Shown here in pieces: positions 1,695 to 64,000 of a stretch of DNA of 64,000 nucleotides; positions within the stretch are counted from its first letter, which is position 1; each line of letters opens with the position of its first letter. Below the pieces are notes generated by a model. The model was not told the origin of the DNA, did not search any database, and saw only the letters and a program-made list of their open reading frames with translations. Both the position numbers and the translations under genes were made by a program. The stretch comes from a virus. The stretch is taken from positions 32,001 through 96,000 of the IMG/VR virus record IMGVR_UViG_3300030419_002087; one strand, given 5' to 3'.

Positions 1695-2437
1695 ATTTGC
1701 CGACTAAATCTTTGATTATCATCATCTACAACAGTCTCCATAAACTGAACATTACCAGAAATAGAAATACGAGGTTTATCAGATGTATAGAATGGATAAA
1801 CCTGATGACTTAATTCACTAGGAAAGAAACATCCCCAACCATTCATATTAGGCGTCATAGGTATAACTTCATTACTAATACCTCTACCATCAGCATAAGT
1901 AAAAACAAAATTGCCGATATAATCATTAATACTGCCACGTGCTATATCTAACTTACGCTCATCATAATGTGAATAAGGTATATCAATCCATATAACAAAA
2001 GAATAAATTCCATGATGATTATGTAATGGATTAAATTCATGTTTATATTGCCAATTAACCCATAATGCAGAAAGATAAGGTTCTAAGTTATGACCAGTAT
2101 CTACATGGCCAGGAAATATCTTTTTATATGCCTCAGTAATCTCCTTATCCATTAACTCTACAGTAAAAGGATCATTCTCAGGTGAATGTAATAAATCAAT
2201 GAACATGCCATGTATAAGCATATTCTCAGGATCTTCTAATTTAAGTGAACGTGATATATTACCAGCAAGGTTATCTTTCCAATCAATATCATTATCTTCT
2301 GCTATCTTTATTCTATTAAGTAAGTAAGTATAGATGTTATCAGGTAGTTTAAACAGATGAGCTACAGTTTGTTTAGTTAATAGAATAGGTTTAATTTCAG
2401 GCCTTTTATATGTTGAATAAGGGGTGGGATTAGACAT
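1691..2437 (-). CDS. putative 2OG-Fe(II) oxygenase
   Basis: WVNWQ..HEFNPLHNH.G..SFVIW...FFPSELSHQVYPF...RISISGN. Confidence 0.8.
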   Translation of the reverse strand: MSNPTPYSTYKRPEIKPILLTKQTVAHLFKLPDNIYTYLLNRIKIAEDNDIDWKDNLAGNISRSLKLEDPENMLIHGMFIDLLHSPENDPFTVELMDKEITEAYKKIFPGHVDTGHNLEPYLSALWVNWQYKHEFNPLHNHHGIYSFVIWIDIPYSHYDERKLDIARGSINDYIGNFVFTYADGRGISNEVIPMTPNMNGWGCFFPSELSHQVYPFYTSDKPRISISGNVQFMETVVDDDNQRFSRQI

Positions 2438-2591
2438 AATAAATAATTGGTTTTAAAATAAAAGCCTTTTTTTAATTAAGCTGTGTTTTTTATGTAGTTT
2501 ATAATCTGTACGGAATATGTGTAGATTGAGTATAGATTATGCTTGGTAATTTATGTTAGAAACTTATGGCCTTATTGTCATCTTGGCGCTC

Positions 2592-2620
2592 AGCTTATCA
2601 TAAAATCTCTAAGAAGTCAA
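2592..2620 (-). promoter_or_regulatory. sigma70-type promoter facing the minus-strand oxygenase gene
   Basis: minus strand TTGACT-N17-TAAGCT with TG extended -10. Confidence 0.5.
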
Positions 2621-2718
2621 CATAAAACTCTGAAATTCTCACAAAACTTTATGGGAGGGGTCTTATGTTGCGAAGTATTGCGATGTTTATGACAGCTCTC
2701 AAAGTGTCACACAGCATA

Positions 2719-2748
2719 TTGACTTCGCAGGGGCCTGCGTGGTAGCCT
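2719..2748 (+). promoter_or_regulatory. sigma70-type promoter
   Basis: TTGACT-N18-TAGCCT with TG extension, directly after a TGACA-N10-TGTCA palindrome. Confidence 0.45.
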
Positions 2749-2790
2749 GAAGGGGTGCAGGGGAGGGCGCAGTAGATATACTTCGCACGA

Positions 2791-2825
2791 AGCATAAGGC
2801 CTGCGGGCGCAGCATAAGGCCTGCG
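2791..2825 (+). repeat. direct repeat AGCATAAGGCCTGCG x2 (20-bp period)
   Basis: exact copies at 2791-2805 and 2811-2825; CGTAACGCAGG is also repeated at ~2848 and ~2895. Confidence 0.85.
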
Positions 2826-2909
2826 TCCATCCGCAGCACATATAATGCGTAACGCAGGCAATATACTGCACGGGCCCACCAACCCGCCTGCCCACGTAAC
2901 GCAGGGGCC

Positions 2910-2939
2910 AGCCTAACATGTGTCTGCGCCTTATGTCAA
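2910..2939 (-). promoter_or_regulatory. sigma70-type promoter (minus strand)
   Basis: TTGACA-N18-TAGGCT with TG extension, back-to-back with the 2944 promoter. Confidence 0.45.
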
Positions 2940-2943
2940 GCGC

Positions 2944-2972
2944 TTGCCTTTTGGGCGCGGAGGCCTTATAAT
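2944..2972 (+). promoter_or_regulatory. sigma70-type early promoter
   Basis: TTGCCT-N17-TATAAT. Confidence 0.65.
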
Positions 2973-3290
2973 AGGTACAACTGGGAGCCCGAGAGCAGAC
3001 GCGGCCCCAGCCAACCACTGTGACACCTCGCCGACTGGGCTGGGGCTTGTGACAGTCAGGGAACTGGCCTCTCTTTTGGTGTGGGGCGGGCCGGTTCCAG
3101 AAGTGGCACAGTGGTTCGTGTTGGGGTCATATCGGACGTTGATAGACCAGTTATATAATTGTCACAAGGGCCTTCGCAGTTCGGCCGAAGTCCAGTTGCG
3201 AAACTGTCCTTTTATGTTAAGTTTTTGTTGTAAATATTCCTATAGGGTCGGGTGAGATTTTATAATGAGGGAGTACCAAACGAATTCGTG

Positions 3291-3458
3291 ATGAATCAAC
3301 TTGAAACTGTGCGTTCATTTTTCACGGACACACAATGGGATTTGATCGACTCCGCACTATCGGAATATCAAGACCACGATGCGGAGTATCTCAAAGAAGT
3401 TTTTGACGATGAGGAGATCGTATGGTCAACTCAAAAACGTCTTAACGAACTTTTCTAA
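3291..3458 (+). CDS. small early-region protein (paralog of 3736..3903)
   Basis: ATG at 3291 after TATAAT (3261); MNQLETVRSFFTDTQWDLIDSALSEYQD. Confidence 0.7.
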   Translation: MNQLETVRSFFTDTQWDLIDSALSEYQDHDAEYLKEVFDDEEIVWSTQKRLNELF

Positions 3459-3607
3459 TGAATGAAATTTCAATTCCTATGGATAACGACCAATGGAGGA
3501 CTGTCCTTGATGCACTTCTTGACAAGTACCCCGATTGTGACGTTGTAGACCTAATCATTGAAACTATTCCAGATTGCAAGGATTATTATTATAAGAGAGG
3601 GTTTTAA
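3458..3607 (+). CDS. small hypothetical protein (49 aa)
   Basis: TAATG coupling; MNEISIPMDNDQWRTVLDALLDKYP...; ends within a terminator. Confidence 0.6.
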   Translation: MNEISIPMDNDQWRTVLDALLDKYPDCDVVDLIIETIPDCKDYYYKRGF

Positions 3608-3618
3608 CCCTCTTTTTT
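3593..3618 (+). terminator. intrinsic terminator
   Basis: AGAGGGTT/AACCCTCT stem followed by a T run. Confidence 0.75.
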
Positions 3619-3735
3619 CTTGACAGGTCGGCCGAAGCCGGTTTTGAAATTGTCACAAGGAGATTTAATATTCTTTTAACAAGTTTTGTATCAAGGTGTA
3701 CTACGTGTTCCCTGAGATTCCTATACAATAAAAAT

Positions 3736-3903
3736 ATGAATAACACACCTTCAAAAATCGTGCGTGACTTCTTTACTTCTGAAGAGTGGGACGCAATCGA
3801 TTCCGCATTATGCGATTTCCAAGACTACGGTGAAAAGGAATCAGACCTTGCGAATTCCGTAGGTAACAAAATTTACAATCTTTTTAAGGAGGATCTAAAA
3901 TGA
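3736..3903 (+). CDS. small early-region protein (paralog of 3291..3458)
   Basis: MNNTPSKIVRDFFTSEEWDAIDSALCDFQD; ATGA overlap with the next gene; below the ORF-track cutoff. Confidence 0.7.
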   Translation: MNNTPSKIVRDFFTSEEWDAIDSALCDFQDYGEKESDLANSVGNKIYNLFKEDLK

Positions 3904-4082
3904 GTTTAATCAAAGAATTTTATTCTGGACTCCTTGACAAGGGATACACTGAACGGGAAATTCGGGAATCATGTAAAAAACACCAGACCCGAACCGCACC
4001 CGATTGGTGGGTTGGTAAGAATCCAAACGGAACTTACGAAGACTACCTTGAAGATCTAGGAGATTTTCTCAACGGACTCTAA
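3900..4082 (+). CDS. hypothetical protein
   Basis: 60-aa ORF with AGGAGG RBS. Confidence 0.7.
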   Translation: MSLIKEFYSGLLDKGYTEREIRESCKKHQTRTAPDWWVGKNPNGTYEDYLEDLGDFLNGL

Positions 4083-4097
4083 GGAGTCCGTTTTTTT
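4071..4097 (+). terminator. intrinsic terminator
   Basis: AACGGACTC-TAAG-GAGTCCGTT followed by a T run. Confidence 0.8.
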
Positions 4098-4235
4098 ATG
4101 TGACGGTGAGCGAAGCGGCCTTGGCCGCTAGCCGGTTGGGAAACTGGACTTTTTTACAACAAACCCGTTACAATCGATTTACGAGGCAACCCCTTACCGT
4201 TTATAATTTGGGAGTAAACAACGCACCACGTTTTT

Positions 4236-4607
4236 ATGCCACGTAAATCAACCGCATCCAAGTCAACCGCAACTGCTCCAAGAGCACCACGTAAGACAAG
4301 GACACGGAAGGTTACACCCGCTCCAGTTAAGACCGTAACAAGTCCAACACCTGAAGCGAAACCAGTTGAAATGCCCAAGGCAACAACTGTTACCACTTTC
4401 CAAGGCGGTAAGGTGATTGCAAAAGAGTTGATGCGTCCAACAGCACCATTAATCCAATTCAAGGATTATCGCCGTGACGCAATCAACCGCTGGAACATTC
4501 ATCGTTATGAGATCCAGCAACTAGGTAAAGACTTTCAAAAGTTCTTTAACTTCGTTCAACCCTTACACTCTGAGATGGTCAACCGTATTAAAACAGTTGA
4601 ACTCTAA
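4236..4607 (+). CDS. hypothetical protein with a basic K/R/T/P-rich disordered N-terminus
   Basis: 123-aa ORF after TATAAT (4202), followed by a terminator. Confidence 0.7.
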   Translation: MPRKSTASKSTATAPRAPRKTRTRKVTPAPVKTVTSPTPEAKPVEMPKATTVTTFQGGKVIAKELMRPTAPLIQFKDYRRDAINRWNIHRYEIQQLGKDFQKFFNFVQPLHSEMVNRIKTVEL

Positions 4608-4614
4608 ACCCCAT

Positions 4615-4643
4615 CACCCCGCCGCAAGGTGGGGTGTTTTTTT
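4615..4643 (+). terminator. intrinsic terminator
   Basis: CACCCCGCC-GCAA-GGTGGGGTG + T7. Confidence 0.85.
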
Positions 4644-4850
4644 ATGCTCAGTTGAGAAGGCCAGCTGGCCAGTCAAAAAACTGTCACAAGACCCCGTTTA
4701 CAGATTCCAAAAAATCGACTATACTTACTAATGTAAGGGACATGAGAGACACGGACATGGGATTCGTTTCTAGACCGTTTCCAGACATGTATACCCTCTG
4801 AACTCTGGAGTTCCTTACAACCAAAATTTCACACCAAAGGAGTTTTAAAA

Positions 4851-4979
4851 ATGTCAGTTCTACATCATGCGGAGATTCAAGAAACCTTATTAGATGAGGT
4901 TTGCGAAGAATTCCCAAATATGTCCTACGACACCCAAATCGAAATCGCAATGCAAAGATTTGAGGATTTATGTCAGTAA
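4851..4979 (+). CDS. small acidic cyanophage-type protein (42 aa)
   Basis: AGGAG RBS; MSVLHHAEIQETLLDEVCEEFP...; TAATG coupling to the next gene. Confidence 0.65.
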   Translation: MSVLHHAEIQETLLDEVCEEFPNMSYDTQIEIAMQRFEDLCQ

Positions 4980-5158
4980 TGAGTTTTTTCAACCACGTTC
5001 AACTTCATAAGTACGACCTGACAAACGCAGGTATCGACCAAGCATGCTACGATGAATTGGTCGCCTCTGGAAACAATTCTACAGAGGATCAACTTTGGAT
5101 TCTTGCTGCTGACATGCGTGAGAGATTCAAAGACTATATGCGACCCTTATTCGCATAG
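4979..5158 (+). CDS. hypothetical protein
   Basis: start taken at the coupled ATG 4979 (MSFFNHVQLHKYDL). Confidence 0.65.
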   Translation: MSFFNHVQLHKYDLTNAGIDQACYDELVASGNNSTEDQLWILAADMRERFKDYMRPLFA

Positions 5159-5173
5159 GTAACGAATTATTAC

Positions 5174-5200
5174 AGAACCCTTAACAAGGGTTCTTTTTTT
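5174..5200 (+). terminator. intrinsic terminator
   Basis: AGAACCCTT-AAC-AAGGGTTCT followed by a T run. Confidence 0.8.
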
Positions 5201-5258
5201 GATATTATTAAGGAGTGGGAGAGAAACCCACCAATTCACACCCCGATTTTTTTCCAAC

Positions 5259-5600
5259 ATGCGTAAAATTGAAAAACAAATGAACTTCGCAATTTCCAAC
5301 AAAGGTGATTGGTCTAAGGACAATACCAGAGTTGAATTCAACGATTCTACAAACTGTTCAGACGTTTTTCTACATGGTCACAACATCGCAACTTTTGACC
5401 ACGGAACACAGTCTGTAAGATTGAGTTCATGCGGATGGGAAACCGTCACAACCAAATCAAGATTAAATGCAATCTTGGATGAGGTCGCAACAGGTGCAGG
5501 GATTTTCCAAAAACAGTTTGAGTGGTTTTTGAATTCTGGAGGTCGTACAGTTGATTTCTTTGACGGGATGATCTTAACTGATTCAGGTGAGGTCATCTGA
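5259..5600 (+). CDS. conserved cyanophage-type hypothetical protein
   Basis: MRKIEKQMNFAI...LHGHNIA...GWETVTTKSRLNAIL; likely start 5259. Confidence 0.7.
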   Translation: MRKIEKQMNFAISNKGDWSKDNTRVEFNDSTNCSDVFLHGHNIATFDHGTQSVRLSSCGWETVTTKSRLNAILDEVATGAGIFQKQFEWFLNSGGRTVDFFDGMILTDSGEVI

Positions 5601-5602
5601 AA

Positions 5603-5749
5603 ATGTACGAAGGAATCACACCTTGGCAAATACCCGTCTATTCTGACGGGTATCGCCCCGCCGACGATGACGAATTAATGAACGTTTTTTATGACGACAT
5701 TAAGGAGGACATCGACCCCGAAACCCAAAAACTTTTAAACAACTTTTAA
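5603..5749 (+). CDS. small acidic hypothetical protein (48 aa)
   Basis: MYEGITPWQIPVYSDGYRPADDDELM...; tightly packed in the operon. Confidence 0.55.
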   Translation: MYEGITPWQIPVYSDGYRPADDDELMNVFYDDIKEDIDPETQKLLNNF

Positions 5750-5899
5750 ATGCCTTCATTTGCTAACACCACGATCCGCTACTGGATGCCCCACGATCAA
5801 AAATGCCGCTACATCTCATTTTCAACTTATCGCAAGGCATTGGAAATGCAAAAATGGTATAGCGAGATCGCCGGGTTTAAAACAGAAATCGTCGTATGA
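5750..5899 (+). CDS. small hypothetical protein (49 aa)
   Basis: MPSFANTTIRYWMPHDQKCRYISF...; starts right after the previous stop and ends just before a terminator. Confidence 0.6.
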   Translation: MPSFANTTIRYWMPHDQKCRYISFSTYRKALEMQKWYSEIAGFKTEIVV

Positions 5900-5904
5900 C
5901 ACTC

Positions 5905-5935
5905 AAGGAACCGGCCAGCAGTCGGTTCCTTTTTT
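5905..5935 (+). terminator. intrinsic terminator
   Basis: AAGGAACCGGC/GTCGGTTCCTT stem followed by a T run. Confidence 0.8.
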
Positions 5936-5987
5936 CTTGCCATCGCCTATAATGACTATAGGACACACACCCCGCTTCGTCTTCATT

Positions 5988-6233
5988 ATGACTCTTTCAG
6001 AATTAGGATCTTGCTCAAAGTTAGATCTTCTCATCGCCGAAACGCAGGGCAAATGCTGCGTCACCAGATTGAAAACCAGAAAACCCCGTAAGGGTGAACT
6101 GGTTATGAGCATGACCAAAGGGAGCAGGACTAACACGAATCGCAGGGGGCAGGCATACTCCGCCCACGCACTGCGACCCGAAACCAACGTGATCTCCGCC
6201 CCTGCCTCATCGTATTTCAAGACCAGCGGATAA
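5988..6233 (+). CDS. basic hypothetical protein
   Basis: ATG at 5988 after TATAAT (5948); the upstream part of the track ORF crosses a terminator. Confidence 0.6.
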   Translation: MTLSELGSCSKLDLLIAETQGKCCVTRLKTRKPRKGELVMSMTKGSRTNTNRRGQAYSAHALRPETNVISAPASSYFKTSG

Positions 6234-6241
6234 TCACACCT

Positions 6242-6278
6242 TGCCCCTGAGCGCTTCGTGTTCAGGGGCAGTTATTTT
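6242..6278 (+). terminator. strong hairpin / probable terminator
   Basis: TGCCCCTGAGCGC/GTGTTCAGGGGCA stem with a weak T tail. Confidence 0.55.
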
Positions 6279-6420
6279 GGGGGTTTATTAAAAATTGTAA
6301 CTTCCCTAACCTACAAAAGTCTGCTTTCGCCATAAAATACAAAACGCATAAGTGTTTTCCGTGGCATACAAAAAATTTTGGTGGCCTAGAAATTTGCCAC
6401 AGGATGTGTTATAATTAGAA

Positions 6421-6609
6421 GTGAAGCCACTCAAAGAATCTATGAGCGACTTAAGGTTCCATGTTTATGGGAGGAAGAACAAGGTTAAAGCAATCAATAT
6501 ATCGCATGAAGAACTGGAAGATCTCATAAAAACACGGAAATTTGATCCGTGTATAGATGAAGTAGTTCCAGTACTTGATGAATACCATAATGAAGATGCG
6601 TCTTATTGA
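6421..6609 (+). CDS. hypothetical protein
   Basis: ORF after TGTTATAAT (~6407); the real start may be ATG 6442. Confidence 0.6.
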   Translation: MKPLKESMSDLRFHVYGRKNKVKAINISHEELEDLIKTRKFDPCIDEVVPVLDEYHNEDASY

Positions 6610-6634
6610 CAAAGCCTAAATAAAATGGTATGAT
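6606..6634 (+). promoter_or_regulatory. sigma70-type promoter with embedded late-like CTAAATA
   Basis: TTGACA-N17-TATGAT with TG extension; CTAAATA at 6616-6622. Confidence 0.65.
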
Positions 6635-6672
6635 TTGATCAACATTACAAACTCACTGAATATTTTTCACTA

Positions 6673-7425
6673 ATGGCAAAAGGATTTAAAGTCCAAGCGG
6701 CGGCTCCCTCCGTACCGAAGGACGACTTCGATTTGGATAGATGTCGAAGCGAAATAAAAGGGAAGAAGATAGTTTTCTGTTTGCCTGGGAGAGGATGCAG
6801 TTATACATTTTTAAAAAACTTTGTACAACTGTGTTTTGATATCGTACAGGCCGGTGGAAGCATACAGATATCACAAGATTATTCATCTATGGTAAACTTT
6901 GCAAGATGCAAAGTACTAGGTGCAAATGTACTCAGAGGAAAGAATCAAATACCTTGGGACGGGAAATTAGAATATGATTATCAGTTATGGATAGACAATG
7001 ATATAGTTTTCAATAGTGAAAGTTTCTATCGTTTATTCCAGTTAGCTTTAGAGAAAGAAATCGCAGCAGGGTGGTATGCCACTGAAGATGGACAGACCAC
7101 TTCCATTGCACACTGGCTCGAAGAAGAAGACTTCAAGAAGAATAAAGGGGTCATGAACCACGAGACTGTGGAGACAATGAGTAAGAGACGTAAACCATTC
7201 ACATGTGATTACACAGGTTTCGGATGGGTTCTTATCAAGAAGGGAGTATTCGAGAATCTTCCATATCCTTGGTTTGCACCACAAATGCAAGTCTTCGAGA
7301 GTGGTGATGTACAGGACATGTGTGGTGAGGATGTCAGCTTCTGCTTAGATGCAAAGAAGGAAGGTTATGAGATATGGTGTGATCCGAGAATCCGTGTAGG
7401 CCATGAAAAGATGCGAATCCTTTGA
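6673..7425 (+). CDS. GT-A fold (family 2-like) glycosyltransferase
   Basis: YDYQLWIDND (DxD), TGFGWVLIKKGVFE, GEDVSFC, DPRIRVGH. Confidence 0.8.
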   Translation: MAKGFKVQAAAPSVPKDDFDLDRCRSEIKGKKIVFCLPGRGCSYTFLKNFVQLCFDIVQAGGSIQISQDYSSMVNFARCKVLGANVLRGKNQIPWDGKLEYDYQLWIDNDIVFNSESFYRLFQLALEKEIAAGWYATEDGQTTSIAHWLEEEDFKKNKGVMNHETVETMSKRRKPFTCDYTGFGWVLIKKGVFENLPYPWFAPQMQVFESGDVQDMCGEDVSFCLDAKKEGYEIWCDPRIRVGHEKMRIL

Positions 7426-7564
7426 CATTTATGTTGATGATCAGCTCGTTTTCTCGACTGAAGACGAGCTTGAAGCACTTGATAAAATACAAGACCTTTC
7501 CGAAGAATACTTTGAGAAAGGTCATCCAGACCCCTCTACAGTTCAATTAGTACGTTATGGCTAA
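7403..7564 (+). CDS. small acidic hypothetical protein (53 aa)
   Basis: MKRCESFDIYVDDQLVF...GHPDPSTVQLVRYG; fills the gap between neighbours. Confidence 0.55.
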   Translation: MKRCESFDIYVDDQLVFSTEDELEALDKIQDLSEEYFEKGHPDPSTVQLVRYG

Positions 7565-7703
7565 AATTAAATCGTCCCTTACCGGCGGCAACTCGATTGA
7601 GACGATCCCCAAAAAATCTCGGCAAGGAACGGGAAAACACTCGAAGTTCTCGGCAACCTCTCGAAATGCAAGGAAAAAAAGATATCGCGGCCAGGGAAAA
7701 TAA
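7557..7703 (+). CDS. small highly basic cyanophage protein (48 aa)
   Basis: MAKIKSSLTGGNSIETIPKKSRQGTGKHSKFSATSRNARKKRYRGQGK. Confidence 0.7.
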   Translation: MAKIKSSLTGGNSIETIPKKSRQGTGKHSKFSATSRNARKKRYRGQGK

Positions 7704-7744
7704 TAAAAACGTAAATAAGCTGTTTAGTTTGAAAGTACACTAAG

Positions 7745-8035
7745 ATGAGCTACAACGTTACCCTTATTACCGAAGAAGGTGAAGTTCAAATAACTTGTGA
7801 TGATGACACTCCAATTTTGGATGCTGCTGAAGATCAAGGTGTTGATGCTCCCTATTCATGTCGTGCAGGTGCATGTTCCACATGTGCAGGTAAACTACTA
7901 GAAGGTACAGTCGATCAAGAAGATCAAAGTTTCCTTGATGATGATCAGATTGAAGAAGGTTATATCCTTACATGTGTTGCAAAACCCACTTCCGACTGTA
8001 TTGTTGAGTTGAATCAAGAAGAAAAACTATATTAA
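7745..8035 (+). CDS. petF: plant-type [2Fe-2S] ferredoxin (auxiliary metabolic gene)
   Basis: [12 protein letters not shown]...LTC motif, 96 aa, acidic. Confidence 0.97.
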
Positions 8036-8049
8036 TAGTTGAGTTTGTG

Positions 8050-8071
8050 AGGGAGTCCTAGACTCCCTTTT
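8050..8071 (+). terminator. intrinsic terminator
   Basis: AGGGAGTC-CTA-GACTCCCT followed by Ts. Confidence 0.65.
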
Positions 8072-8084
8072 ATAATTTTTAACC

Positions 8085-8381
8085 ATGTATCAAGCATTAC
8101 CAACTGGACTCCATATAAAAGATAGTCCTATCGCAGGCCAAGGTATTTTCGCCAAAGAAGATATGCCTGCTGACCTAGAATTAGGTGTATCTCATGTAGT
8201 TGTGGATGATGATATAATGAGAACTCCTATAGGTGGTTTTGTTAACCATAGTGATGACCCTAATTGTGTTAAGTATCCTATCGAACAGGATTGGGGTGTA
8301 ATTTATCACATGAAAACGATTAAACCTATAAAAAAAGGTGAAGAATTGTTCCTAAAATATACTTTTTACTCAGTAGTATAA
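8085..8381 (+). CDS. minimal SET-domain protein
   Basis: SPIAGQGIFA, FVNHSDDPNC, IKKGEELFLKY SET signature motifs. Confidence 0.85.
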   Translation: MYQALPTGLHIKDSPIAGQGIFAKEDMPADLELGVSHVVVDDDIMRTPIGGFVNHSDDPNCVKYPIEQDWGVIYHMKTIKPIKKGEELFLKYTFYSVV

Positions 8382-8384
8382 ATA
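8377..8384 (+). promoter_or_regulatory. T4-type late promoter
   Basis: TATAAATA upstream of gp25. Confidence 0.75.
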
Positions 8385-8409
8385 TATAAGACCAAATTAT
8401 GTCATTTAG

Positions 8410-8814
8410 ATGCCAACCATTGGACAATCACGCTATTTTAAGGATATTTCCTTAAGTTTTAAGCGGCATCCAGTTACTAATGACCTACTTTCGTTAACAA
8501 ACGAAGCAGCAATTAAGAAATCAGTTAGAAATTTAGTTGAAACCATCAATGGTGAACGCTTTTTTAACTCTTTGATTGGTTCGGCGGTTCGTGAAAGTCT
8601 GTTTGAACAGGCTGATACTGAAGTTTTATTCAGATTAGAGCAAGAAATACGAACTTCCATTGAAAATTTTGAACAACGAGTGAATTTGACATCGGTTAAT
8701 GCTAAGCATCCTCCCGATACCAATGAAATTCAGATAGATATTAATTATACAATTATTGGCGAAGTCTTTCCGCCTCAAGAAATATCGTTCATTCTTCAAC
8801 CAACTAGACAATAA
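8410..8814 (+). CDS. gp25: baseplate wedge subunit gp25
   Basis: FKDISLSF..HPVTND...AIKKSVRNLVET..GERFF...IENFEQRV; synteny. Confidence 0.9.
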   Translation: MPTIGQSRYFKDISLSFKRHPVTNDLLSLTNEAAIKKSVRNLVETINGERFFNSLIGSAVRESLFEQADTEVLFRLEQEIRTSIENFEQRVNLTSVNAKHPPDTNEIQIDINYTIIGEVFPPQEISFILQPTRQ

Positions 8815-56284: not shown

Positions 56285-56325
56285 AGTATAGATTAAATCT
56301 AAAAAAATCTATAGTCTAATTCGGA

Positions 56326-57420
56326 GTGGCAAAAATGTCCCGTGGTAACGATTTACAAGAAATGGAAGTAGGCACTGTTCAATCCAAGACTGCCGTAAAT
56401 GCTGGAGCTAAAGCTGGTGATCCTCAACAAGGAATTTCACCAAGCTCCACTCCTGGCCAGTCCATTGAAGATCTCGGCGGGCCCACTCCAGATAACTATA
56501 AGCCCGACAATGATTCGGCTAAGTTAAAAGTACCTGGCAAAACACTCGCACAAGTTGCGAATGTTGTTAATAAGGGTGCAAAACCAGCAGAACCAATGCA
56601 ACATCTCGACAAGAAAGCAAATTATGAGGAGACAGAAGCTGCTCCTGAAGAAGTAATTGCTGAAGAGCCAGTTGCAGAGGAGAAGGTCGAAGAGAAAGCT
56701 CCTGAGTTTAATGTCGATGAAGACATGAGTGCTCTGTTCTCTGGTGAAGAACTCAGTGAAGAGTTCCAAGAAAAAGCAAAGACAATCTTTGAAGCAGCAA
56801 TTAACTCCAAAGTTTCATCTATTGAAGAAGAGATGAAGAAGGAGAATGAGGCTAAGATTGCAGAAGAAATTGAGTCCGTTAAAACCTCTCTAATCGAGCG
56901 TGTTGATGGTTACTTGGAGTACGTCGCAGATGAGTGGCTCCAAGCTAACGAGCTCGCTATTGAGCATGGACTTAAATCAGAAATGACTGAATCATTCCTA
57001 ACTGGAATGAGAAGTCTCTTTGAAGCACATTATGTATCAATCCCTGAAGATAAATATGATGTCGTTGAGAATATGGTCAACAAACTTGATGAAATGGAGA
57101 CCAAACTTAACGAGCAGATCGAGAAGAATGTATCGCTAAACTCTAGACTCGCTGAGTCTACAGCAGATGGGATAATTTCTGAAGTGGCTGAAGGACTTGC
57201 CTTAAGTCAGAAAGAGAAGCTCCAAGAGCTCGCAAAGAGTGTTGAGTTTGAAAGTGAAGAATCATATCGTGAAAAACTGGGTACTCTAAAGGAGTCTTAC
57301 TTCAATAAGAGTGTTCAGAAAGAAACCTCAGAACAGGTACTAAACGAAGAAACAGCCGGAGCAGATTATACTGGTTCAATGGCTCGTTACATGAGTATCC
57401 TAGACAAGGTTAATAAGTGA
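56326..57420 (+). CDS. gp22: prohead scaffold protein gp22
   Basis: LSEEFQEKAKTIFEAA, VDGYLEYVADEW, acidic coiled coil, synteny. Confidence 0.92.
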   Translation: MAKMSRGNDLQEMEVGTVQSKTAVNAGAKAGDPQQGISPSSTPGQSIEDLGGPTPDNYKPDNDSAKLKVPGKTLAQVANVVNKGAKPAEPMQHLDKKANYEETEAAPEEVIAEEPVAEEKVEEKAPEFNVDEDMSALFSGEELSEEFQEKAKTIFEAAINSKVSSIEEEMKKENEAKIAEEIESVKTSLIERVDGYLEYVADEWLQANELAIEHGLKSEMTESFLTGMRSLFEAHYVSIPEDKYDVVENMVNKLDEMETKLNEQIEKNVSLNSRLAESTADGIISEVAEGLALSQKEKLQELAKSVEFESEESYREKLGTLKESYFNKSVQKETSEQVLNEETAGADYTGSMARYMSILDKVNK

Positions 57421-57480
57421 ATTTAACATTATAGGTTAAACACAACCCTACTCTTTATATCTTTTTAAAAGGAAAAGGCA

Positions 57481-58869
57481 ATGTTCCAATCAGAACAGTT
57501 GCAAGAGAAGTGGGCCCCTCTACTAAATCATGAAGGTCTTGGTGAAATTAAAGACCCTCATCGTAGAGCAGTTACCGCTTGCTTGCTAGAAAACCAAGAA
57601 AGATTCTTAGCTGAAGAGTCTTCATTCTCCAGAGGGCAATCCCTCATGGAACAACCAACAAACGCAGTTGGTTCAAACGGATTTACAGGGGATGCTACAG
57701 CAGCAGGCCCAACAGCAGGTTTTGACCCCGTATTGATCAGTCTAATTAGACGTTCAATGCCTAACTTGCTTGCATATGATCTATGCGGCGTTCAGCCAAT
57801 GAACGGCCCAACAGGTCTTATATTCGCAATGCGTTCTCGCTACGACGGACAGGCAGGAGGAGAAGCTCTATTCGATGAGCCTAACTCAGCCTTCTCTGCT
57901 GAGCGTGAAGGTAACGACGCAACAGCAGGTTGGACATCAACCAACGCTGGTTTCGGTACAACTGGTCAAATCGGTTCTAATCCTTCCGTACTTGGTGCTA
58001 CAGACGCTAACCAAGGTCTATACTCTGTTGGTCAGGGTATGCGTAAGGATGAGGCAGAAGGTCTTGGAGAATCTGGAAATGATTTCCACGAAATGGCCTT
58101 CAGCATCGAGAAAGTAACTGTTACAGCGAAATCTCGTGCGCTAAAAGCTGAGTATTCATTAGAACTTGCTCAAGACCTCAAGGCAATCCACGGATTGAAC
58201 GCTGAGTCTGAGTTAGCAAATATTCTTTCTAGTGAGATCCTCGCTGAAATAAACAGAGAAGTTATCAGAACTATCTACAAAGTTGCTGAGTCAGGTGCTC
58301 AGAACAACGTAGCAACCGCTGGTACTTTCGACTTAGACGTTGACTCCAACGGTAGATGGTCTGTTGAGAAGTTCAAAGGACTTCTATTCCAGATCGAAAG
58401 AGATGCAAACGCAGTTGCACAAAGAACTCGTCGTGGAAAGGGCAACACAATCATCACTTCTGCTGATGTTGCTTCCGCACTAACCATGGCTGGTGTACTT
58501 GACTACACCCCAGCTCTTAATGCTAACCTAAACGTTGATGACACTGGCAACACATTTGCTGGAACAATCAATGGTAAGTATCGTGTATACATCGATCCTT
58601 ATTCTGCAAACGTTGCTGCAAACCATTACTACGTAGTTGGTTACAAGGGTTCTAACCCATATGATGCAGGTTTATTCTACTGCCCATATGTACCGCTCCA
58701 GATGGTACGTGCCGTCAACGACGGAACCTTCCAGCCAAAAATCGGCTTTAAGACTCGTTACGGTATGGTTGCTAACCCATTCGCTGAGGGAACTACTCAG
58801 GGACTTGGCGCTCTTACTCAGAACGCAAACCGCTACTACAGGCGCGTTAAGGTTACAAACCTAATGTAA
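57481..58869 (+). CDS. gp23: major capsid protein gp23
   Basis: LQEKWAPLL, GVQPMNGPTGLIFAMR, KSRALKAEYSLELAQDLKAIHG, FQPKIGFKTRYG. Confidence 0.98.
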   Translation: MFQSEQLQEKWAPLLNHEGLGEIKDPHRRAVTACLLENQERFLAEESSFSRGQSLMEQPTNAVGSNGFTGDATAAGPTAGFDPVLISLIRRSMPNLLAYDLCGVQPMNGPTGLIFAMRSRYDGQAGGEALFDEPNSAFSAEREGNDATAGWTSTNAGFGTTGQIGSNPSVLGATDANQGLYSVGQGMRKDEAEGLGESGNDFHEMAFSIEKVTVTAKSRALKAEYSLELAQDLKAIHGLNAESELANILSSEILAEINREVIRTIYKVAESGAQNNVATAGTFDLDVDSNGRWSVEKFKGLLFQIERDANAVAQRTRRGKGNTIITSADVASALTMAGVLDYTPALNANLNVDDTGNTFAGTINGKYRVYIDPYSANVAANHYYVVGYKGSNPYDAGLFYCPYVPLQMVRAVNDGTFQPKIGFKTRYGMVANPFAEGTTQGLGALTQNANRYYRRVKVTNLM

Positions 58870-58898
58870 GAAAGAAGGTTATATCTTCTTACTATAAC

Positions 58899-58926
58899 AA
58901 GACCTCCTTCGGGGGGTCTTTTTTTT
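58899..58926 (+). terminator. intrinsic terminator after gp23
   Basis: AAGACCTCC-TTCG-GGGGGTCTT followed by a T run. Confidence 0.9.
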
Positions 58927-58955
58927 GTCTAAATAGATTAGTTTGTCCAAAAATA

Positions 58956-59753
58956 ATGACTGCACTGATTGACCCAAAAAAGTATAGTGAGACCGTTGAC
59001 CTATTGAGGTCATTTTTTTTGTCTAAAGGTTTCCTAGAGGTTCATACTCAAAACCGTTTAAGTATCCTTGCTGCATGTGAAGATCCAGAAACAGTAGCAA
59101 CATACAACTACGCTGGCAATATATGGCCATTACCACAGACAGGACAGATGTGGTTAGAATATGAATTACTTTCCAACCCCGAAGCAGAGGGGTTTTTCTG
59201 TGTCTCCACTTCATACAGAGCAGAACCAAATCCAGTTCCAGGCCGACATGAGATTATATTTCCCATGTTTGAGTTTGAAATGAAGGGAGGTGTAGAAGAA
59301 CTTAAGAAGATGGAAATTGAATTATGTGAACATCTTGGATTACCATTAGATACTGAAAATATTCAGACCTATGATGATTGGGGTAATCAGTTCAATGCAA
59401 AAGAACTTGACCACGATCATGAAGATAAGATTGGTACTGGTATGATTACTGATTTCCCTGAGTTCACATCACCATTCTGGAATATGGCAAGGAATGATGA
59501 TGGTACTAGTAAAAAGATTGATGTTATCCTTGGTGGTAAAGAAACAATCGGTAGTGCTGAAAGAAGTACAGACAAAAAACAGATGAGAGATACATTCTAT
59601 ACCATCTCGGATGGCCAGTATGCACAACTCATCATTGATTTGTTTGGTAAGGAAAGAGTAGAAAAAGAACTAGAAGAGTTCTTAGAGTTTGATTTCTTCC
59701 CCAGAAGTGGTGGAGGTATTGGTATGCAACGTCTAATGTCAGCCCTTTCATAG
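58956..59753 (+). CDS. class IIb aminoacyl-tRNA synthetase-like protein (Asn/Asp/Lys family), catalytic core only
   Basis: motif 1 LRSFFLSKGFLEVHT, motif 2 YRAE...RH..FPMFEFE, ETIGSAER, motif 3 RSGGGIGMQRL; no N-terminal OB-fold; CTAAATA at 58929. Confidence 0.85.
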   Translation: MTALIDPKKYSETVDLLRSFFLSKGFLEVHTQNRLSILAACEDPETVATYNYAGNIWPLPQTGQMWLEYELLSNPEAEGFFCVSTSYRAEPNPVPGRHEIIFPMFEFEMKGGVEELKKMEIELCEHLGLPLDTENIQTYDDWGNQFNAKELDHDHEDKIGTGMITDFPEFTSPFWNMARNDDGTSKKIDVILGGKETIGSAERSTDKKQMRDTFYTISDGQYAQLIIDLFGKERVEKELEEFLEFDFFPRSGGGIGMQRLMSALS

Positions 59754-59762
59754 GGCTTTCAA

Positions 59763-59847
59763 TGTGAGGTGGCGAAACGGTAAACGCTCTAGTCTGTTTA
59801 ACTAGTGTTCCTGGCGGGACTTATAGGTTCGACTCCTATCCTCACAG
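59763..59847 (+). tRNA. tRNA-Asn(GUU), atypical: long variable arm, U37, no encoded CCA
   Basis: acceptor TGTGAGG/CCTCACA + G73; D stem GCG/CGC with GG in the loop; anticodon stem CTAGT/ACTAG, loop CTGTTTA; variable arm GTTCC-TGGC-GGGAC; T arm ATAGG-TTCGACT-CCTAT. Confidence 0.88.
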
Positions 59848-59879
59848 TTTTAAAACAATATTTATGGTATAATGTATTT

Positions 59880-59947
59880 GTCAGAGAAATACTGACTGCG
59901 GTGATCCCCTTTGGTAGTTTCAGGATTAGCGGCGATAGGAAACTACC
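59880..59947 (+). ncRNA. candidate structured small RNA (hairpin plus pseudoknot)
   Basis: TGGTATAAT at 59865-59873; GTCAG/CTGAC hairpin; GGTAGTTTC/GAAACTACC stem whose loop GGATTA can pair with upstream TGATCC. Confidence 0.5.
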
Positions 59948-59979
59948 TACTAAATATAACAGGAGACCTGCTTTCTACC

Positions 59980-60147
59980 ATGCTCTGCAAAGTAAGAAAA
60001 TCACTCAAAGAATATCGTGAGTGGCAATTGAAAATGTACAATCGCTGGGAAGATACTCTGGAAGTAAGACTTGCAGGTATTAAGGCCGCGAGAGAAAAAC
60101 TTGAAGAACAAATGAGTAGAGATACTACTACCGAAGATAATGGCTAA
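59980..60147 (+). CDS. small coiled-coil hypothetical protein
   Basis: CTAAATA (59950) and AGGAG, ATG 59980. Confidence 0.6.
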   Translation: MLCKVRKSLKEYREWQLKMYNRWEDTLEVRLAGIKAAREKLEEQMSRDTTTEDNG

Positions 60148-60706
60148 CAACCCGCTTTTAAATCAAGTTGCTAATAGGAACTTTCTGTCTCCTATTGGTT
60201 TTAAGTTAAAGATACAGAAATGTCCAAAGGTAGATTTTCTTTCAATTGGATGTAATTTACCTGGCGTTACTTTAGGAAGTGCTGTACAATCAACATACCT
60301 AAAGGATATTGATGTACCTGGCGATAAATTAATTTATGAAGATTTTCGTGTAAATTTTATAGTTGATGAGAACTTAGAAAATTATAATCAGATCTATAAA
60401 TGGATAATGGGCCTTGGTTTTCCAGAGTCGCAACAACAATTTGTAGAACTAAAAACGGATGATAAGTATTATCCAGATGTATCAGATAAAGATAATCCCC
60501 TTGCAATGTATTCGGATGCAACCCTTCAAATTTTGAATAGTAACTATAGACCTCAATCTTATGTTAAAATAAAGGATGCATTTCCAACTAGTCTAACTGG
60601 ATTAGAATTCAATGCGACTGACACTACTGTAGAATATTTCACAGCGTCAGTTATGTTCAAATATAGAATATTTGAATTATTAGACCAAGATATGAAACCT
60701 ATGTAA
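60140..60706 (+). CDS. gp3: tail completion / tube terminator protein gp3
   Basis: NRNFLSPIGF, PGDKLIY..F...FIVDENLENY, SDATLQILNSN, FPTSL. Confidence 0.9.
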   Translation: MANNPLLNQVANRNFLSPIGFKLKIQKCPKVDFLSIGCNLPGVTLGSAVQSTYLKDIDVPGDKLIYEDFRVNFIVDENLENYNQIYKWIMGLGFPESQQQFVELKTDDKYYPDVSDKDNPLAMYSDATLQILNSNYRPQSYVKIKDAFPTSLTGLEFNATDTTVEYFTASVMFKYRIFELLDQDMKPM

Positions 60707-60709
60707 TTT

Positions 60710-61144
60710 ATGAACCTTGATACAATTCAGGATATGTGGTCAAAAGACTCTGTTATTGATCCTGATGAACTACACAATGCTTCGCTTGCCATTCCAAATT
60801 TACACTCTAAATACTTTCAGTTGTATAACGATCTGAAACTTCTAAGGGCTAAGGCCAAGAAGATACAACAATCGGTATATCACGAAAGGCATTTATATTA
60901 TTCAGGAAAGGCAGAACCAGATGTTTACGTCAAAGATCCTTTTCCCATAAAAGTGAGAGAGAAGGATGCGTTGCAAAGATATTTGGATGCTGATACGAGA
61001 CTGACTGATGCCGTACTCAAAGTAGAGTATTATGATGTGATGTTGAATTACCTTGAAGAAATAATCAAGACTATTCAAAACCGAACTTTTCAGATCAAAA
61101 ACGCAATTGATTGGCAAAAGTTCATCCGTGGATACGACAGTTAA
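60710..61144 (+). CDS. uvsY: recombination mediator UvsY
   Basis: W.KDS.ID...IPNLHSKY...YYSGKA...RTFQIKNAIDW.KF. Confidence 0.92.
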   Translation: MNLDTIQDMWSKDSVIDPDELHNASLAIPNLHSKYFQLYNDLKLLRAKAKKIQQSVYHERHLYYSGKAEPDVYVKDPFPIKVREKDALQRYLDADTRLTDAVLKVEYYDVMLNYLEEIIKTIQNRTFQIKNAIDWQKFIRGYDS

Positions 61145-62594
61145 AATCTCAAAAAAGAATGAAGCTTATCTGAAGATTCAAGCAGATCCCCATGTCTTCT
61201 ATGAATTATCAGATTATTTTACTTTCGATGTTCCAGGCGCAAAGTTCATGCCTCAGTATCGAAGTAAATACTGGGATGGTAAGATTAGATTATTTAACAC
61301 AGGCTCTGGTGAGATCTATGCTGGTCTAGTAGATAAAGTTGTTACTTTTCTAGACAGGCGTGGATATGAATATGAATTTGAACATAGTGAATACTATGGA
61401 AACCCCTATGAGGAGAACGAGATGGTTTCTCCCGAAGGGGTTTTTGATTATATGAATAAGATATCTAGTATTAAACCAAGACCTTATCAGGTAAAAGGTG
61501 TATATGATGCACTGAGACAAAACAGAAGGTTATTAGTATCTCCTACTGCTTCTGGTAAATCATTAATGATCTATACCATAGTTAGGTATATGATTGAGAA
61601 GGAAAATATTGTTTTATTAGTTGTTCCTACTACATCACTTGTAGAACAGATGTATAAGGACTTTAAAGAATATGGATGGAACTCAGAAAAATATTGTCAT
61701 AAAGTCTATTCTGGTAAAGAAAAATTTGATCCTAGGCCTGTAACTATTACAACTTGGCAATCTGTCTATAAATTAGATCGTAAATTCTTTTCAAGATATG
61801 ATTGTGTTATAGGTGATGAAGCACACCTATTTAAGTCAAAATCTTTAGTTAGTATCATGACAAAACTACGTGATGCAAAATATAGATTTGGTTTTACTGG
61901 TACATTGGATGGTACACAAACTCATAAGTGGGTACTAGAAGGTTTATTTGGCCCAACATATAAGATTATTAAGACTGATGAATTAATGGAAAAGGGTCAT
62001 CTTGCAAAGTTAGATATTAAAATTCTTTTATTAAAACATGATCCCCAGATGTTTGATACTTATGAAGATGAGGTTCAATTTATTATTCAAAATGAAAAAC
62101 GTAATAATTTTATTAAGAACCTTGCTTTAGATTTAAAAGGAAATAGTCTCATATTATACAGTAGAGTGGAATCACATGGAGCTGTATTATACGACTTAAT
62201 AAATAATTCCGTAACTGATCGAGAAGTATTTTTTGTTCACGGTGGTGTGGACGCTCAAGAAAGAGAACAGGTCAGAGAAATAACTGAAAAGGAAAACAAT
62301 GCAATTATCATCGCTAGCTACGGCACTTTTAGTACTGGGATTAACATTAAGCGGCTGCACAACGTCATCTTCGCCAGTCCCTCAAAGTCCAGAGTTAGAA
62401 ACCTCCAGTCCATTGGTAGAGTCCTTAGAAAGGGAACAAACAAAGTAAAAGCAATCTTATATGATATTGCCGATGACTGTACTAAAGGTTCTCGAAAAAA
62501 TTATACTTTAAATCATCTCATAGAGAGGGTTAAAATCTATAACGAAGAAAATTTTAATTATGAAATAATCCCTATACGAATGAATTCCTCATGA
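61128..62594 (+). CDS. uvsW: SF2 helicase UvsW
   Basis: WDGKIRLF, SPTASGKS, DEAH, GFTGT, QSIGRVLR; probable GTG start at 61128. Confidence 0.95.
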   Translation: MDTTVKISKKNEAYLKIQADPHVFYELSDYFTFDVPGAKFMPQYRSKYWDGKIRLFNTGSGEIYAGLVDKVVTFLDRRGYEYEFEHSEYYGNPYEENEMVSPEGVFDYMNKISSIKPRPYQVKGVYDALRQNRRLLVSPTASGKSLMIYTIVRYMIEKENIVLLVVPTTSLVEQMYKDFKEYGWNSEKYCHKVYSGKEKFDPRPVTITTWQSVYKLDRKFFSRYDCVIGDEAHLFKSKSLVSIMTKLRDAKYRFGFTGTLDGTQTHKWVLEGLFGPTYKIIKTDELMEKGHLAKLDIKILLLKHDPQMFDTYEDEVQFIIQNEKRNNFIKNLALDLKGNSLILYSRVESHGAVLYDLINNSVTDREVFFVHGGVDAQEREQVREITEKENNAIIIASYGTFSTGINIKRLHNVIFASPSKSRVRNLQSIGRVLRKGTNKVKAILYDIADDCTKGSRKNYTLNHLIERVKIYNEENFNYEIIPIRMNSS

Positions 62595-63004
62595 CAAAAG
62601 ATTCAGACACATATGCAATTATTAAATTAGTTAGTGGCGAAGAGTTATTTTCACAAGTAGCAGAGTTTTATGATGACGATATAAAGGCCATATTATTAAT
62701 GGATCCATGTACAATGAGACAAATCGCCTCTCGCCGGGGTGGTAAATCTTATTATAAAATTGATAAGTGGGTCAAATTATCCGATGAACAAGTCTACTGT
62801 GTTGAAATGAAACATATTATGTTCTACACTAGATGTATGGATACACACGTAATTAACACCTATAGGAAGTGGGTCAAAGCCATAAATAATGGAACGGAAG
62901 AACGGCAATACACGAAAGTTGGGGTATCTACATCAATGGGATATATATCTTCCGTCGAAAAGACTAGAGATTCTCTAGAAAAGCTTTTTAAAAAAGACAG
63001 CTAA
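62591..63004 (+). CDS. conserved hypothetical protein (IKLVSGEE, Sm-like type)
   Basis: typical position between uvsW and gp55. Confidence 0.75.
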   Translation: MTKDSDTYAIIKLVSGEELFSQVAEFYDDDIKAILLMDPCTMRQIASRRGGKSYYKIDKWVKLSDEQVYCVEMKHIMFYTRCMDTHVINTYRKWVKAINNGTEERQYTKVGVSTSMGYISSVEKTRDSLEKLFKKDS

Positions 63005-63051
63005 GTGTCCCTTGAACCCTAGCAGAGTTATTCTACTGATTTAATCGGAGC

Positions 63052-63080
63052 TTGTCAAGGCCCCGATTTATTGGTATAAT
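63052..63080 (+). promoter_or_regulatory. sigma70-type promoter for gp55
   Basis: TTGTCA-N17-TATAAT with TG extension. Confidence 0.75.
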
Positions 63081-63117
63081 GACTTATGGTTATGATGTTC
63101 AAGAAATGACTGTCCTA

Positions 63118-63594
63118 ATGGCTAAGAAAAGGCGATCAGAACATTACGTCAATAATAAAGAATTCCTTGCAGCTATTGTTGAATACAAGGTTGCGGTTAG
63201 GAAGGCCTTAGAGGCCGATCAACCAAAACCAAGGATTACTAATTATCTTGGCGAATGTTTTCTAAAGATTGCAACACATTTATCATATAAACCGAACTTT
63301 GTCAATTACATGTTCAAAGACGATATGGTATGTGATGGTATTGAAAACTGTGTCCAGTATATTAATAACTTTGACCCAGAGAAATCTTCTAATCCTTTTG
63401 CTTATTTTACTCAAATTATCCACTATGCTTTTTTAAGAAGGATACAAAAGGAAAAGAAACAATTAGAAATTAAAACAAAAATTATTGAAAGAACTGGATA
63501 TAGTGAAGTATTCAGTGATGATGGTAATTTCGCTGGTACAGAAAGTGATTATAATACCATTAAAGATAACATAAATTATCGTTATAATAATTGA
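63118..63594 (+). CDS. gp55: late-transcription sigma factor gp55
   Basis: HYVNNKEF, YLGECFLKIA, PNFVNY, NPFAYFTQI...AFLRRIQKEKKQ. Confidence 0.96.
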   Translation: MAKKRRSEHYVNNKEFLAAIVEYKVAVRKALEADQPKPRITNYLGECFLKIATHLSYKPNFVNYMFKDDMVCDGIENCVQYINNFDPEKSSNPFAYFTQIIHYAFLRRIQKEKKQLEIKTKIIERTGYSEVFSDDGNFAGTESDYNTIKDNINYRYNN

Positions 63595-64000
63595 TGTTCC
63601 CTGTAACAATTATTGACAATTTTTTCTCTGATCCAGATAAAATTGTTGAGATGGCTCGTTCTCAAAAATTTTATAAAACGGATGAAGGTCAATGGCCTGG
63701 AAAGAGAACTCGTGAAATATCTCAATGGAATACAGATTTTTTTCTTTTTACTGCTTTAAAAATTTTAAAAACTTTCTATGAAAGTCCAGTTGAAAGTATT
63801 GATATGTCAATGACTTTTCAATTGATAAAACCATTTAAAGAAGATAGGAATAAAGGATGGATTCATAGGGATAATGATATGCAGTTTGGTGGTTTAATTT
63901 ATCTAAACTCTACACCTGAACCAGATACAGGCACGACTTTATATGAGGAAAATGATGGTTATTCTTTGGTAGATAGAGAAACGAATAGTGTTAAAATAGA
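63594..64000 (+). CDS. partial putative 2OG-Fe(II) oxygenase-like protein (runs off the window)
   Basis: TGATG coupling; MFPVTIIDNFFSDPD...WPGKRT...GWIHRD...GLIYL...GTTLY. Confidence 0.7.
   Translation, partial: MFPVTIIDNFFSDPDKIVEMARSQKFYKTDEGQWPGKRTREISQWNTDFFLFTALKILKTFYESPVESIDMSMTFQLIKPFKEDRNKGWIHRDNDMQFGGLIYLNSTPEPDTGTTLYEENDGYSLVDRETNSVKI

Follow-up and report, generated by a model that had tools for sequence, protein, structure and literature searches.

Why would a virus keep some copies of a restriction site and remove others, when the copies differ only in the base next to them? This question is raised by IMGVR_UViG_3300030419_002087, a linear viral contig of 118,934 bp from IMG/VR, in which the sites CCWGG and CCGG occur only where a G precedes or a C follows them. 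We analysed a stretch of 64,000 nucleotides of this contig (bases 32001-96000, hereafter the window), the contig as a whole, and a gene located past the end of the window, between gp44 and gp62, which encodes a DUF4338/DruA-type GNAT protein and is our candidate for the source of the pattern. The contig, estimated by CheckV to be 60% complete and with a G+C content of 37% in the window, carries T4-type neck, sheath, portal, scaffold, gp23, terminase and UvsW genes, and is a fragment of a T4-like cyanomyovirus, a virus of ocean cyanobacteria. Among isolates it is closest to the Synechococcus phages S-8S55, S-8S56 and S-8S53, to which an 8-kb query is about 75% identical at the DNA level over 43% of its length.

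One flanking base decides which sites are kept

The window contains 70 CCWGG sites, 22 as GCCWGG and 51 as CCWGGC (3 have both flanks), and 19 CCGG sites, 14 as GCCGG and 7 as CCGGC (2 have both). HCCWGGD and HCCGGD, the forms with neither a 5' G nor a 3' C, which we call unflanked, were found 0 times. GGWCC was likewise at 0 and GGCC occurred 149 times. The same was seen over the whole contig, where the counts (written from here on as total/unflanked) were 109/0 for CCWGG and 31/0 for CCGG, with 0 GGWCC and 300 GGCC. The first-pass annotation, made by eye from the letters, had proposed that CCWGG and CCGG exist only in overlap with GCC or GGC and that GGWCC is missing; as a description of the window this is exact, with CTGCAG (see below) adding a GCT context.

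That annotation had also suggested comparing these counts with a codon-shuffled null. We therefore performed 300 within-gene shuffles of synonymous codons in 128 greedily called open reading frames (ORFs) of the whole contig, which preserves both the proteins and their codon usage. The shuffles predicted 86.0 ± 6.0 HCCWGGD (minimum 70), 61.0 ± 7.3 HCCGGD (minimum 40) and 82.0 ± 5.2 GGWCC (minimum 62), against 0 observed for each of the three, while GGCC was doubled (300 observed, 147 ± 8 expected). Total CCWGG was hardly depleted (109 versus 122 expected), so the sites have been shifted into a G-flanked context and not deleted. Binomial tests of the flanks in the contig gave p = 4e-55 for CCNGG (n = 114, none unflanked) and p = 2e-15 for CCGG (n = 31, none unflanked). 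The footprint is real and highly non-random, and counts this far short of what shuffling predicts with proteins and codon usage unchanged are the signature of restriction-site avoidance. The features of the window that the following paragraphs refer to are these:

Window 1..64000, no strand: the footprint itself, with 70 CCWGG and 19 CCGG sites in flanked form only, 0 GGWCC, and GGCC at about twice its expectation (from counts and null).
Window 10697..26263, plus strand: giant ORF of 5188 amino acids from the ORF list, called gp7 in the first-pass annotation, with many Pro-Gly pairs written CCW-GGC and with the GCCWGG sites at 19096, 21223, 24025 and 25084.
Window 27903..35438, plus strand: giant ORF of 2511 amino acids that obeys the flank rule, for example with GCCWGGC at 34853 and CCWGGC at 34269.
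Window 20985..20990 (contig 52985), plus strand: one of the nine CTGCAG sites of the contig, written GCT-GCA-G and G-flanked.

Both giant ORFs are structural. At the codon level the rule is visible in all ORFs of the contig. Where the codon before Pro does not end in G, the Gly that follows Pro CCA or CCT is GGC in 65 of 65 cases, GGC being a rare codon that accounts for 328 of the 2963 Gly codons. Where the preceding codon does end in G, Gly after Pro returns to ordinary usage (GGA 13, GGT 11, GGC 5, GGG 1), and the four Pro-Gly pairs singled out earlier as belonging to this class are indeed GCCWGG, at 19096, 21223, 24025 and 25084. Gly before Pro is GGC (59) or GGG (23) and never GGT or GGA, which agrees with what had been noticed by eye, and the doubling of GGCC is largely due to Gly-Pro being always written GGC-CC or GGG-CC. 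For the reading of codon usage this means that the rare codons GGC, GCC and GGG are placed here by site avoidance, not by translation.

The context required by the rule is short. The base 5' of GCC is unconstrained (C 42, T 29, G 27, A 19), so what is needed is G-CC and not GGCC, which rules out GGCC-specific methylation as the shield, and positions -2 to -6 showed no further constraint. CTGCAG, missed in the first pass, is also bound by the rule: all nine sites of the contig are written GCT-GCA-G (Ala-Ala) and are thus G-flanked, with 0 unflanked against 16.8 ± 3.8 expected. Since the flank here is GCT, a GC (or GCY) context is favoured over GCC, and a strict GCC/GGC context is weakened. GGCC, GGGCC and GGCCC, which contain GC, are retained or enriched. 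Other palindromes have been lost altogether: TTCGAA and GGTACC are at 0 against 31.5 and 18 expected from the shuffles, and GTGCAC, ACCGGT, TCCGGA, CTCGAG and CGATCG are also at zero in the contig. Strong but incomplete depletion over the whole contig was seen for TCGA (162 versus 257 expected) and AGCT (279 versus 411), and GGATCC (8 versus 31 by a Markov estimate) is depleted without a flank rule, 2 of its 8 copies being G-flanked.

The footprint follows a phage gene between gp44 and gp62

Is the rule a general trait of the clade? Only 3 loci, all short, of 80 anchored on gp23 follow it; most of the 80 have plentiful unflanked CCWGG, and many lack GGCC or CCGG instead. In S-8S55, the nearest isolate, 279 of 356 CCWGG sites are unflanked. 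These two results rule out a trait of the whole clade, and close relatives of similar composition do not share the pattern. One relative with 97% identity (L161) obeys the rule across the 13.9 kb that it shares with the contig, and its exceptions (1 unflanked CCWGG and 2 GGWCC) all lie in a 1.3-kb end that the contig does not match (L161:13866-15138), possibly a recent acquisition or a join made in assembly. Among the gp23 loci (L002-L081) the sets of purged sites differ, some loci being without GGCC, some without CCGG, and some without both CCWGG and GGWCC; such differences among related cyanophage contigs suggest lineage-specific restriction pressure.

The recorded host does not seem to account for who obeys the rule. 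Synechococcus WH 7803 is given as the host of both S-PRM1 and S-BM3, but CCGG is 32/0 in the former and absent from the latter, as it is from S-RSM4, recorded on the same strain. Since S-PRM1 and S-BM3 differ on one recorded host, the exemption looks phage-determined, and it goes with phage gene content, namely with a gene in the following region:

Contig 106328-110141 (L084:11328-15141), 12-14 kb past the end of the window: the slot between the clamp-loader genes gp44 and gp62.
Contig 107390-108623 (L084:12390-13623), between gp44 and the GNAT gene: an ORF of 117 amino acids and a phosphoribosyltransferase-like ORF of 192 amino acids (phrog_32468).
Contig 108610-109761, 12.6 kb past the end of the window, between gp44 and gp62: the DUF4338/DruA-type GNAT gene, encoding 383 amino acids.

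We searched 21 isolates, as whole records, for the DUF4338 protein and found it in 11 and not in 10; the counts given below for CCGG in ACG-2014f, for GATC, GANTC and GTATAC in HTVC008M, for CCWGG in S-SRM01 and for CTTAAG in P-RSM1 cover the first 120 kb, and that for S-B43 covers 100 kb of its 214 kb. The gene lies between gp44 and gp62 in every case. Six genomes whose homologue has at least 61% identity hold 148 CCGG sites, none of them unflanked (the contig 31/0, S-8S55 22/0, S-CAM9 37/0, S-PRM1 32/0, S-SCSM2R 14/0 and Sf-FS3 12/0), and the 41 environmental loci of higher GC content that carry the gene gave 28/0. S-SSM7, which also has a homologue of at least 61% identity, shows the CCWGG and CTGCAG rules (206/10 and 27/0). 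The total number of CCGG sites in eight whole genomes without the gene was 0, 0, 0, 0, 1, 0, 0 and 0, and a ninth gene-less isolate, ACG-2014f, does not avoid CCGG (95/73). Among the 205 ORFs of S-CAM9, only the DUF4338 gene was present in 5/5 genomes with the rule and 0/8 of the others.

The slot gene and a D12-class DNA methyltransferase were mutually exclusive in nearly all isolates. All 10 isolates without the DUF4338 gene have the methyltransferase. In nine of them it sits on the side of gp44 that faces gp62, at a distance of 0.3-1.2 kb, in ACG-2014f it is about 14 kb away, and in S-RIM8 and S-RIM14 it is annotated between gp44 and gp62; no D12 methyltransferase was found in 10 of the 11 isolates with the gene. 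Among the 21 isolates, N4/N6 methyltransferases were found only in five gene-less phages and C5 methyltransferases in none. Among the 11 complete relatives with the DUF4338 gene, 10 had no match to PF00145, PF01555, PF02086 or PF02384; the CCGG rule holds in five of them. New are the association of the footprint with the slot gene, the way in which this gene and the D12 methyltransferase exclude each other, and the absence of the flank rule from carriers of CmoX (see below). Literature searches found no work on restriction-site avoidance in cyanophages, no flank rule among the listed titles and abstracts on cyanophage methyltransferases or DNA modification (supplementary homologue lists lying outside that search), and nothing on phage DNA modification in the literature on DUF4338.

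The encoded protein has one Pfam match, DruA/DUF4338 (PF14236; 38.1 bits against a cut-off of 27, E = 1.3e-9), which was also matched by 40 of 42 aligned family members. Residues S133 and R141 are nearly invariant across the family, and 1.84 billion cluster representatives contain 655 relatives of the protein at E ≤ 0.001. With the 42 sequences as input, AlphaFold2 gave a model (mean predicted local distance difference test score 89.7) that has a GNAT fold, and VIA-align placed Mu Mom (8bv8_A) in its top row, with a Z of 9.8, a root mean square deviation of 4.2 and the longest alignment, of 183 residues. The protein and the family profile, used as queries against PDB sequences, returned nothing below E = 1, and Foldseek against the PDB returned nothing at E ≤ 0.001, only weak GNAT rows. 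DUF4338 is described as a GNAT domain (PMC10853773), and the S-SCSM2R homologue is annotated 'methylcarbamoylase mom' on structural grounds (PMC12801897).

The neighbours of the gene in the slot are gp44, the phosphoribosyltransferase-like ORF, gp62 and regA; the Druantia neighbourhood (DruB-E) was not found there. The phosphoribosyltransferase-like and 117-amino-acid ORFs were found only on the contig and in L161, which rules them out as general partners of the GNAT gene. The corresponding slot of S-B43 is occupied by two small ORFs. Five long gp23 contigs gave no match to the GNAT gene, a result that is uninformative at their completeness of 31-53%.

A possible mark at GpC and the competing explanations

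The best explanation of the footprint, to which we give a probability of about 0.6, is site avoidance combined with a mark that the phage carries at GpC and that protects the site's outer C. Host restriction would act at CCWGG, CCGG, GGWCC and CTGCAG, and probably at TTCGAA, GGTACC and others, and synonymous recoding would remove these sites from the genome. Those that the proteins force upon it (Pro-Gly, Ala-Ala and similar pairs) would be placed right after a G, or before a C when seen from the other strand, where a post-replicative mark at the self-complementary 5'-GC-3' would hit the outermost C of the site, on one strand or both, and block cutting. GGWCC cannot overlap a GC step, hence its complete purge. 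We infer both that a base modification forms the shield and which base bears it.

What enzyme would set the mark? The first-pass annotation had attributed the shielding to a modified C at GC or GCC, and had noted that no methyltransferase lies in the window. Selection on the sites, with exemption by one flanking G and with GC favoured over GCC, has held up, and the modified base may be C; a methyltransferase as the agent found no support among the families searched in the 60%-complete contig. The contig gave no match to C5, N4/N6, D12 or N6 methyltransferases nor to TGT, QueC or QueD (PF00145, PF01555, PF02086, PF02384, PF01702, PF06508, PF01242), and a Pfam scan of 58 of its ORFs turned up a single unusual gene, the DUF4338 one. 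Taken on its own, the DUF4338 GNAT protein, which is not a methyltransferase, is the best candidate, although we hold this assignment at somewhat less than even odds; it would mark DNA that has just been replicated, as Mu Mom does. A bolder version, which we regard as possible but more doubtful again, is that the DUF4338/DruA GNAT domain represents a new enzyme class that modifies DNA bases. The domain would, in T4-like marine phages, sit in the clamp-loader operon in place of a Dam-like methyltransferase and would mark every GpC (GG/CC in HTVC008M) on new DNA, using an acyl or aminoacyl donor as Mom does, with the mark readable as a one-base flank rule. If true, this would suggest what DruA does in Druantia defence.

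A number of observations weigh against these proposals. The link between gene and footprint is a correlation among related phages, in groups chosen by gene presence, and gene-less phages also show flank biases, to a lesser degree. With 60% of the genome in the contig, another enzyme may lie in the absent part. Homologues of 55% identity or less come without the GC rule (S-T4 13/2, S-SM2 48/31, S-SRM01 72/59, S-B68 378/260), and seven environmental loci gave 14/8, one of the seven having an 87% homologue (2/0). The Pelagibacter phage HTVC008M (NC_020484.1), with two DUF4338 homologues, has GATC 70/0, GANTC 37/0 and GTATAC 11/0, all 70 GATC being GGATC or GATCC. This flank rule, on sites that themselves start with G, implies a GG/CC motif in that phage, so that family membership alone does not predict the motif. 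The rule is leaky in relatives, the 38 low-GC environmental loci with the gene giving CCWGG 185/14 and 16 GGWCC (7 in one locus). In low-GC relatives G-flanked CCWGG is kept and CCGG is nearly absent (286 kb contain 7 copies, of which the locus L142 alone accounts for 5), so the shield is not effective against every enzyme. The internal GC of CTGCAG and GTGCAC is evidently unprotective, so the motif would have to be GCY or the enzymes insensitive to that position. As to the enzyme, Mom modifies adenine, the critical position of the footprint has only G and C, and CCGG contains no A at all. Ordinary GNATs tie with Mom in the fold search (Z 9.0-9.6), and an hhalign profile comparison with Mu Mom found no similarity (probability 0.2%). 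The fold of the candidate is that of a GNAT, but membership of the Mom family is not supported.

Two observations on other flanking bases may be set beside these. In the Synechococcus phage S-SRM01 (NC_070963.1), which has a distant DUF4338 homologue, 92 of 98 CCWGG sites have a T before or an A after them, and the same holds for 32 of 34 CTTAAG sites in cyanophage P-RSM1 (HQ634175.1), which has no GNAT gene.

The closest known system is CmoA-CmoX-CmoY of the cyanophage S-B43, and through it the main rival explanation arises. According to the S-B43 study (PMC12783734), CmoA makes carboxy-S-adenosylmethionine, CmoX, a homologue of C5-methyltransferases, carboxymethylates C in the GC motif, and CmoY adds glycine. 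The modification is present at about 75% of GC sequences in S-B43 DNA, so that a GC-specific hypermodification of cytosine is known in a cyanophage. The shield on the contig could then be 5-carboxymethylcytosine or its glycine amide at GC, made by CmoA-CmoX, with or without CmoY, from the absent 40% of the genome. S-B43 is, like the source of the contig, a T4-like cyanophage, and its mark on C in GC is the context that the footprint points to; this mark protects against HhaI in vitro (PMC12783734). Moreover, the flank of 31 of 80 IMG/VR loci bearing CmoX matches the last 6 kb of the contig (gp43, uvsX, 3' end), and a Cmo cluster could lie just past that end. Nevertheless, we consider this explanation unlikely. 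PF00145 had no match in the 119 kb of the contig nor in the 21 isolates, which include six complete genomes with the footprint, while the same search finds CmoX in S-B43 with E = 5e-54. The 80 CmoX-bearing loci (668 kb) do not follow the G-flank rule (CCGG 210/131, CCWGG 656/566, CTGCAG 172/101), and eight of the longer ones, which have no CCGG, lack its G-flanked form as well. Loci anchored on uvsX, compared for what may lie past the end of the contig, include none with CmoX, the best relative among them being only 83% identical, and a tblastn search with S-B43 CmoA had no match in 80 uvsX loci, the contig itself not being part of that search. As a positive control, linking a GC mark to the flank rule, S-B43 is uninformative, its CCGG count of 3/0 in the counted 100 kb being too small to weigh.

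The remaining alternatives fare worse than the Cmo system. Without any modification, the rule would appear if the host enzymes themselves needed a non-G before and a non-C after their sites (HCCWGGD, HCCGGD, HCTGCAGD). Enzymes with such 'not-X' outer positions exist (PspXI, VCTCGAGB), and from sequence by itself a shield and a flank preference cannot be told apart; we think this improbable, since three unrelated sites would have to share one flank rule, phages of the same host differ (S-PRM1 32/0, S-BM3 and S-RSM4 0), and the rule tracks a phage gene. A modified G of the 7-deazaguanine type in GGC would put the modified base inside CCWGG-C, GGC being the complement of GCC, and GA and GGC are the motif of CAjan DpdA (PMC10484667). 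Yet CTGCAG is shielded as GCT/AGC, not GGC, and TGT/DpdA (PF01702), QueC (PF06508) and QueD (PF01242) had no match in the 60%-complete contig, a search that did not extend to the complete relatives, which leaves this reading very improbable. Mutational, repair or codon-pair bias in place of site selection, for which we found no supporting point, is next to impossible given zero counts where a protein- and codon-preserving shuffle expects 86, 61 and 82, the use of the rare codon GGC in 65 of 65 cases and only where needed, and close relatives of similar composition without the pattern.

Relation to known systems and a synthetase-like gene in the window

How far does a mark at GpC, with the GNAT protein as its putative enzyme, resemble systems already described? 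Mu Mom is a tRNA-dependent GNAT that makes N6-carbamoylmethyl-adenine at SAS (PMC13219725, PMC7261163), and marks in motifs this short have several precedents in phage DNA: SAS for Mom (PMC13219725), GA/GGC for CAjan DpdA (PMC10484667) and GC for CmoX (PMC12783734). The candidate resembles Mom as a phage protein with a GNAT fold and Mom as its top structural match, Mom marking double-stranded DNA after replication in a short motif and blocking many restriction enzymes. It differs in having no profile similarity, in a footprint where G and C are critical and not the adenine that Mom targets, and in its size and place, with 383 amino acids in a replisome operon against 241 in a late operon for Mom. 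Mom uses Gly-tRNA as donor and has catalytic R111 and S124; the candidate family has its nearly invariant S133 and R141. In contrast to the Cmo system, no homologue of C5-methyltransferases was found in the 60%-complete contig or in its complete relatives with the footprint, and contigs with CmoX have no flank rule.

The loss of GGWCC, TTCGAA, GGTACC, GTGCAC and other sites by synonymous recoding is like the palindrome avoidance of other phage genomes, but here it is set by one flanking base and leaves total CCWGG hardly reduced (109 versus 122). Overlapping methylation, as in Dam/Dcm overlap or GpC methylation by M.CviPI, blocks restriction sites, and there too only some copies of a site are protected, by a mark whose motif is shorter and overlaps the site; that, however, is known as a laboratory effect, whereas in the contig it is read as a genome-wide evolutionary footprint, with no methyltransferase found. 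The candidate is related to DruA (DUF4338) of type I Druantia by its match to PF14236 above the cut-off and differs by standing alone in a phage clamp-loader operon, with no Dru genes beside it. We know of no account of DruA's own activity. A footprint of this kind could allow DNA modifications and their motifs to be predicted for uncultured ocean viruses from the sequence alone, and the same footprint also reports the restriction specificities of the hosts; the analysis names a testable enzyme candidate, of a component type also present in the unexplained Druantia defence.

Finally, the window contains a class II synthetase core of 265 amino acids at 58956-59753 (plus strand; PF00152, E = 3.7e-15), without an anticodon-binding domain and followed by a tRNA. 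Because Mom uses charged tRNA, we considered whether this truncated synthetase-like ORF with its odd tRNA (window 58956-59850) is linked to the footprint; it had no match in the 21 cyanophage and pelagiphage isolates and so cannot explain a footprint that several of them share, which rules the link out. By analogy with the chemistry of CmoY and Mom, the core might be an AsnA-like amide ligase.

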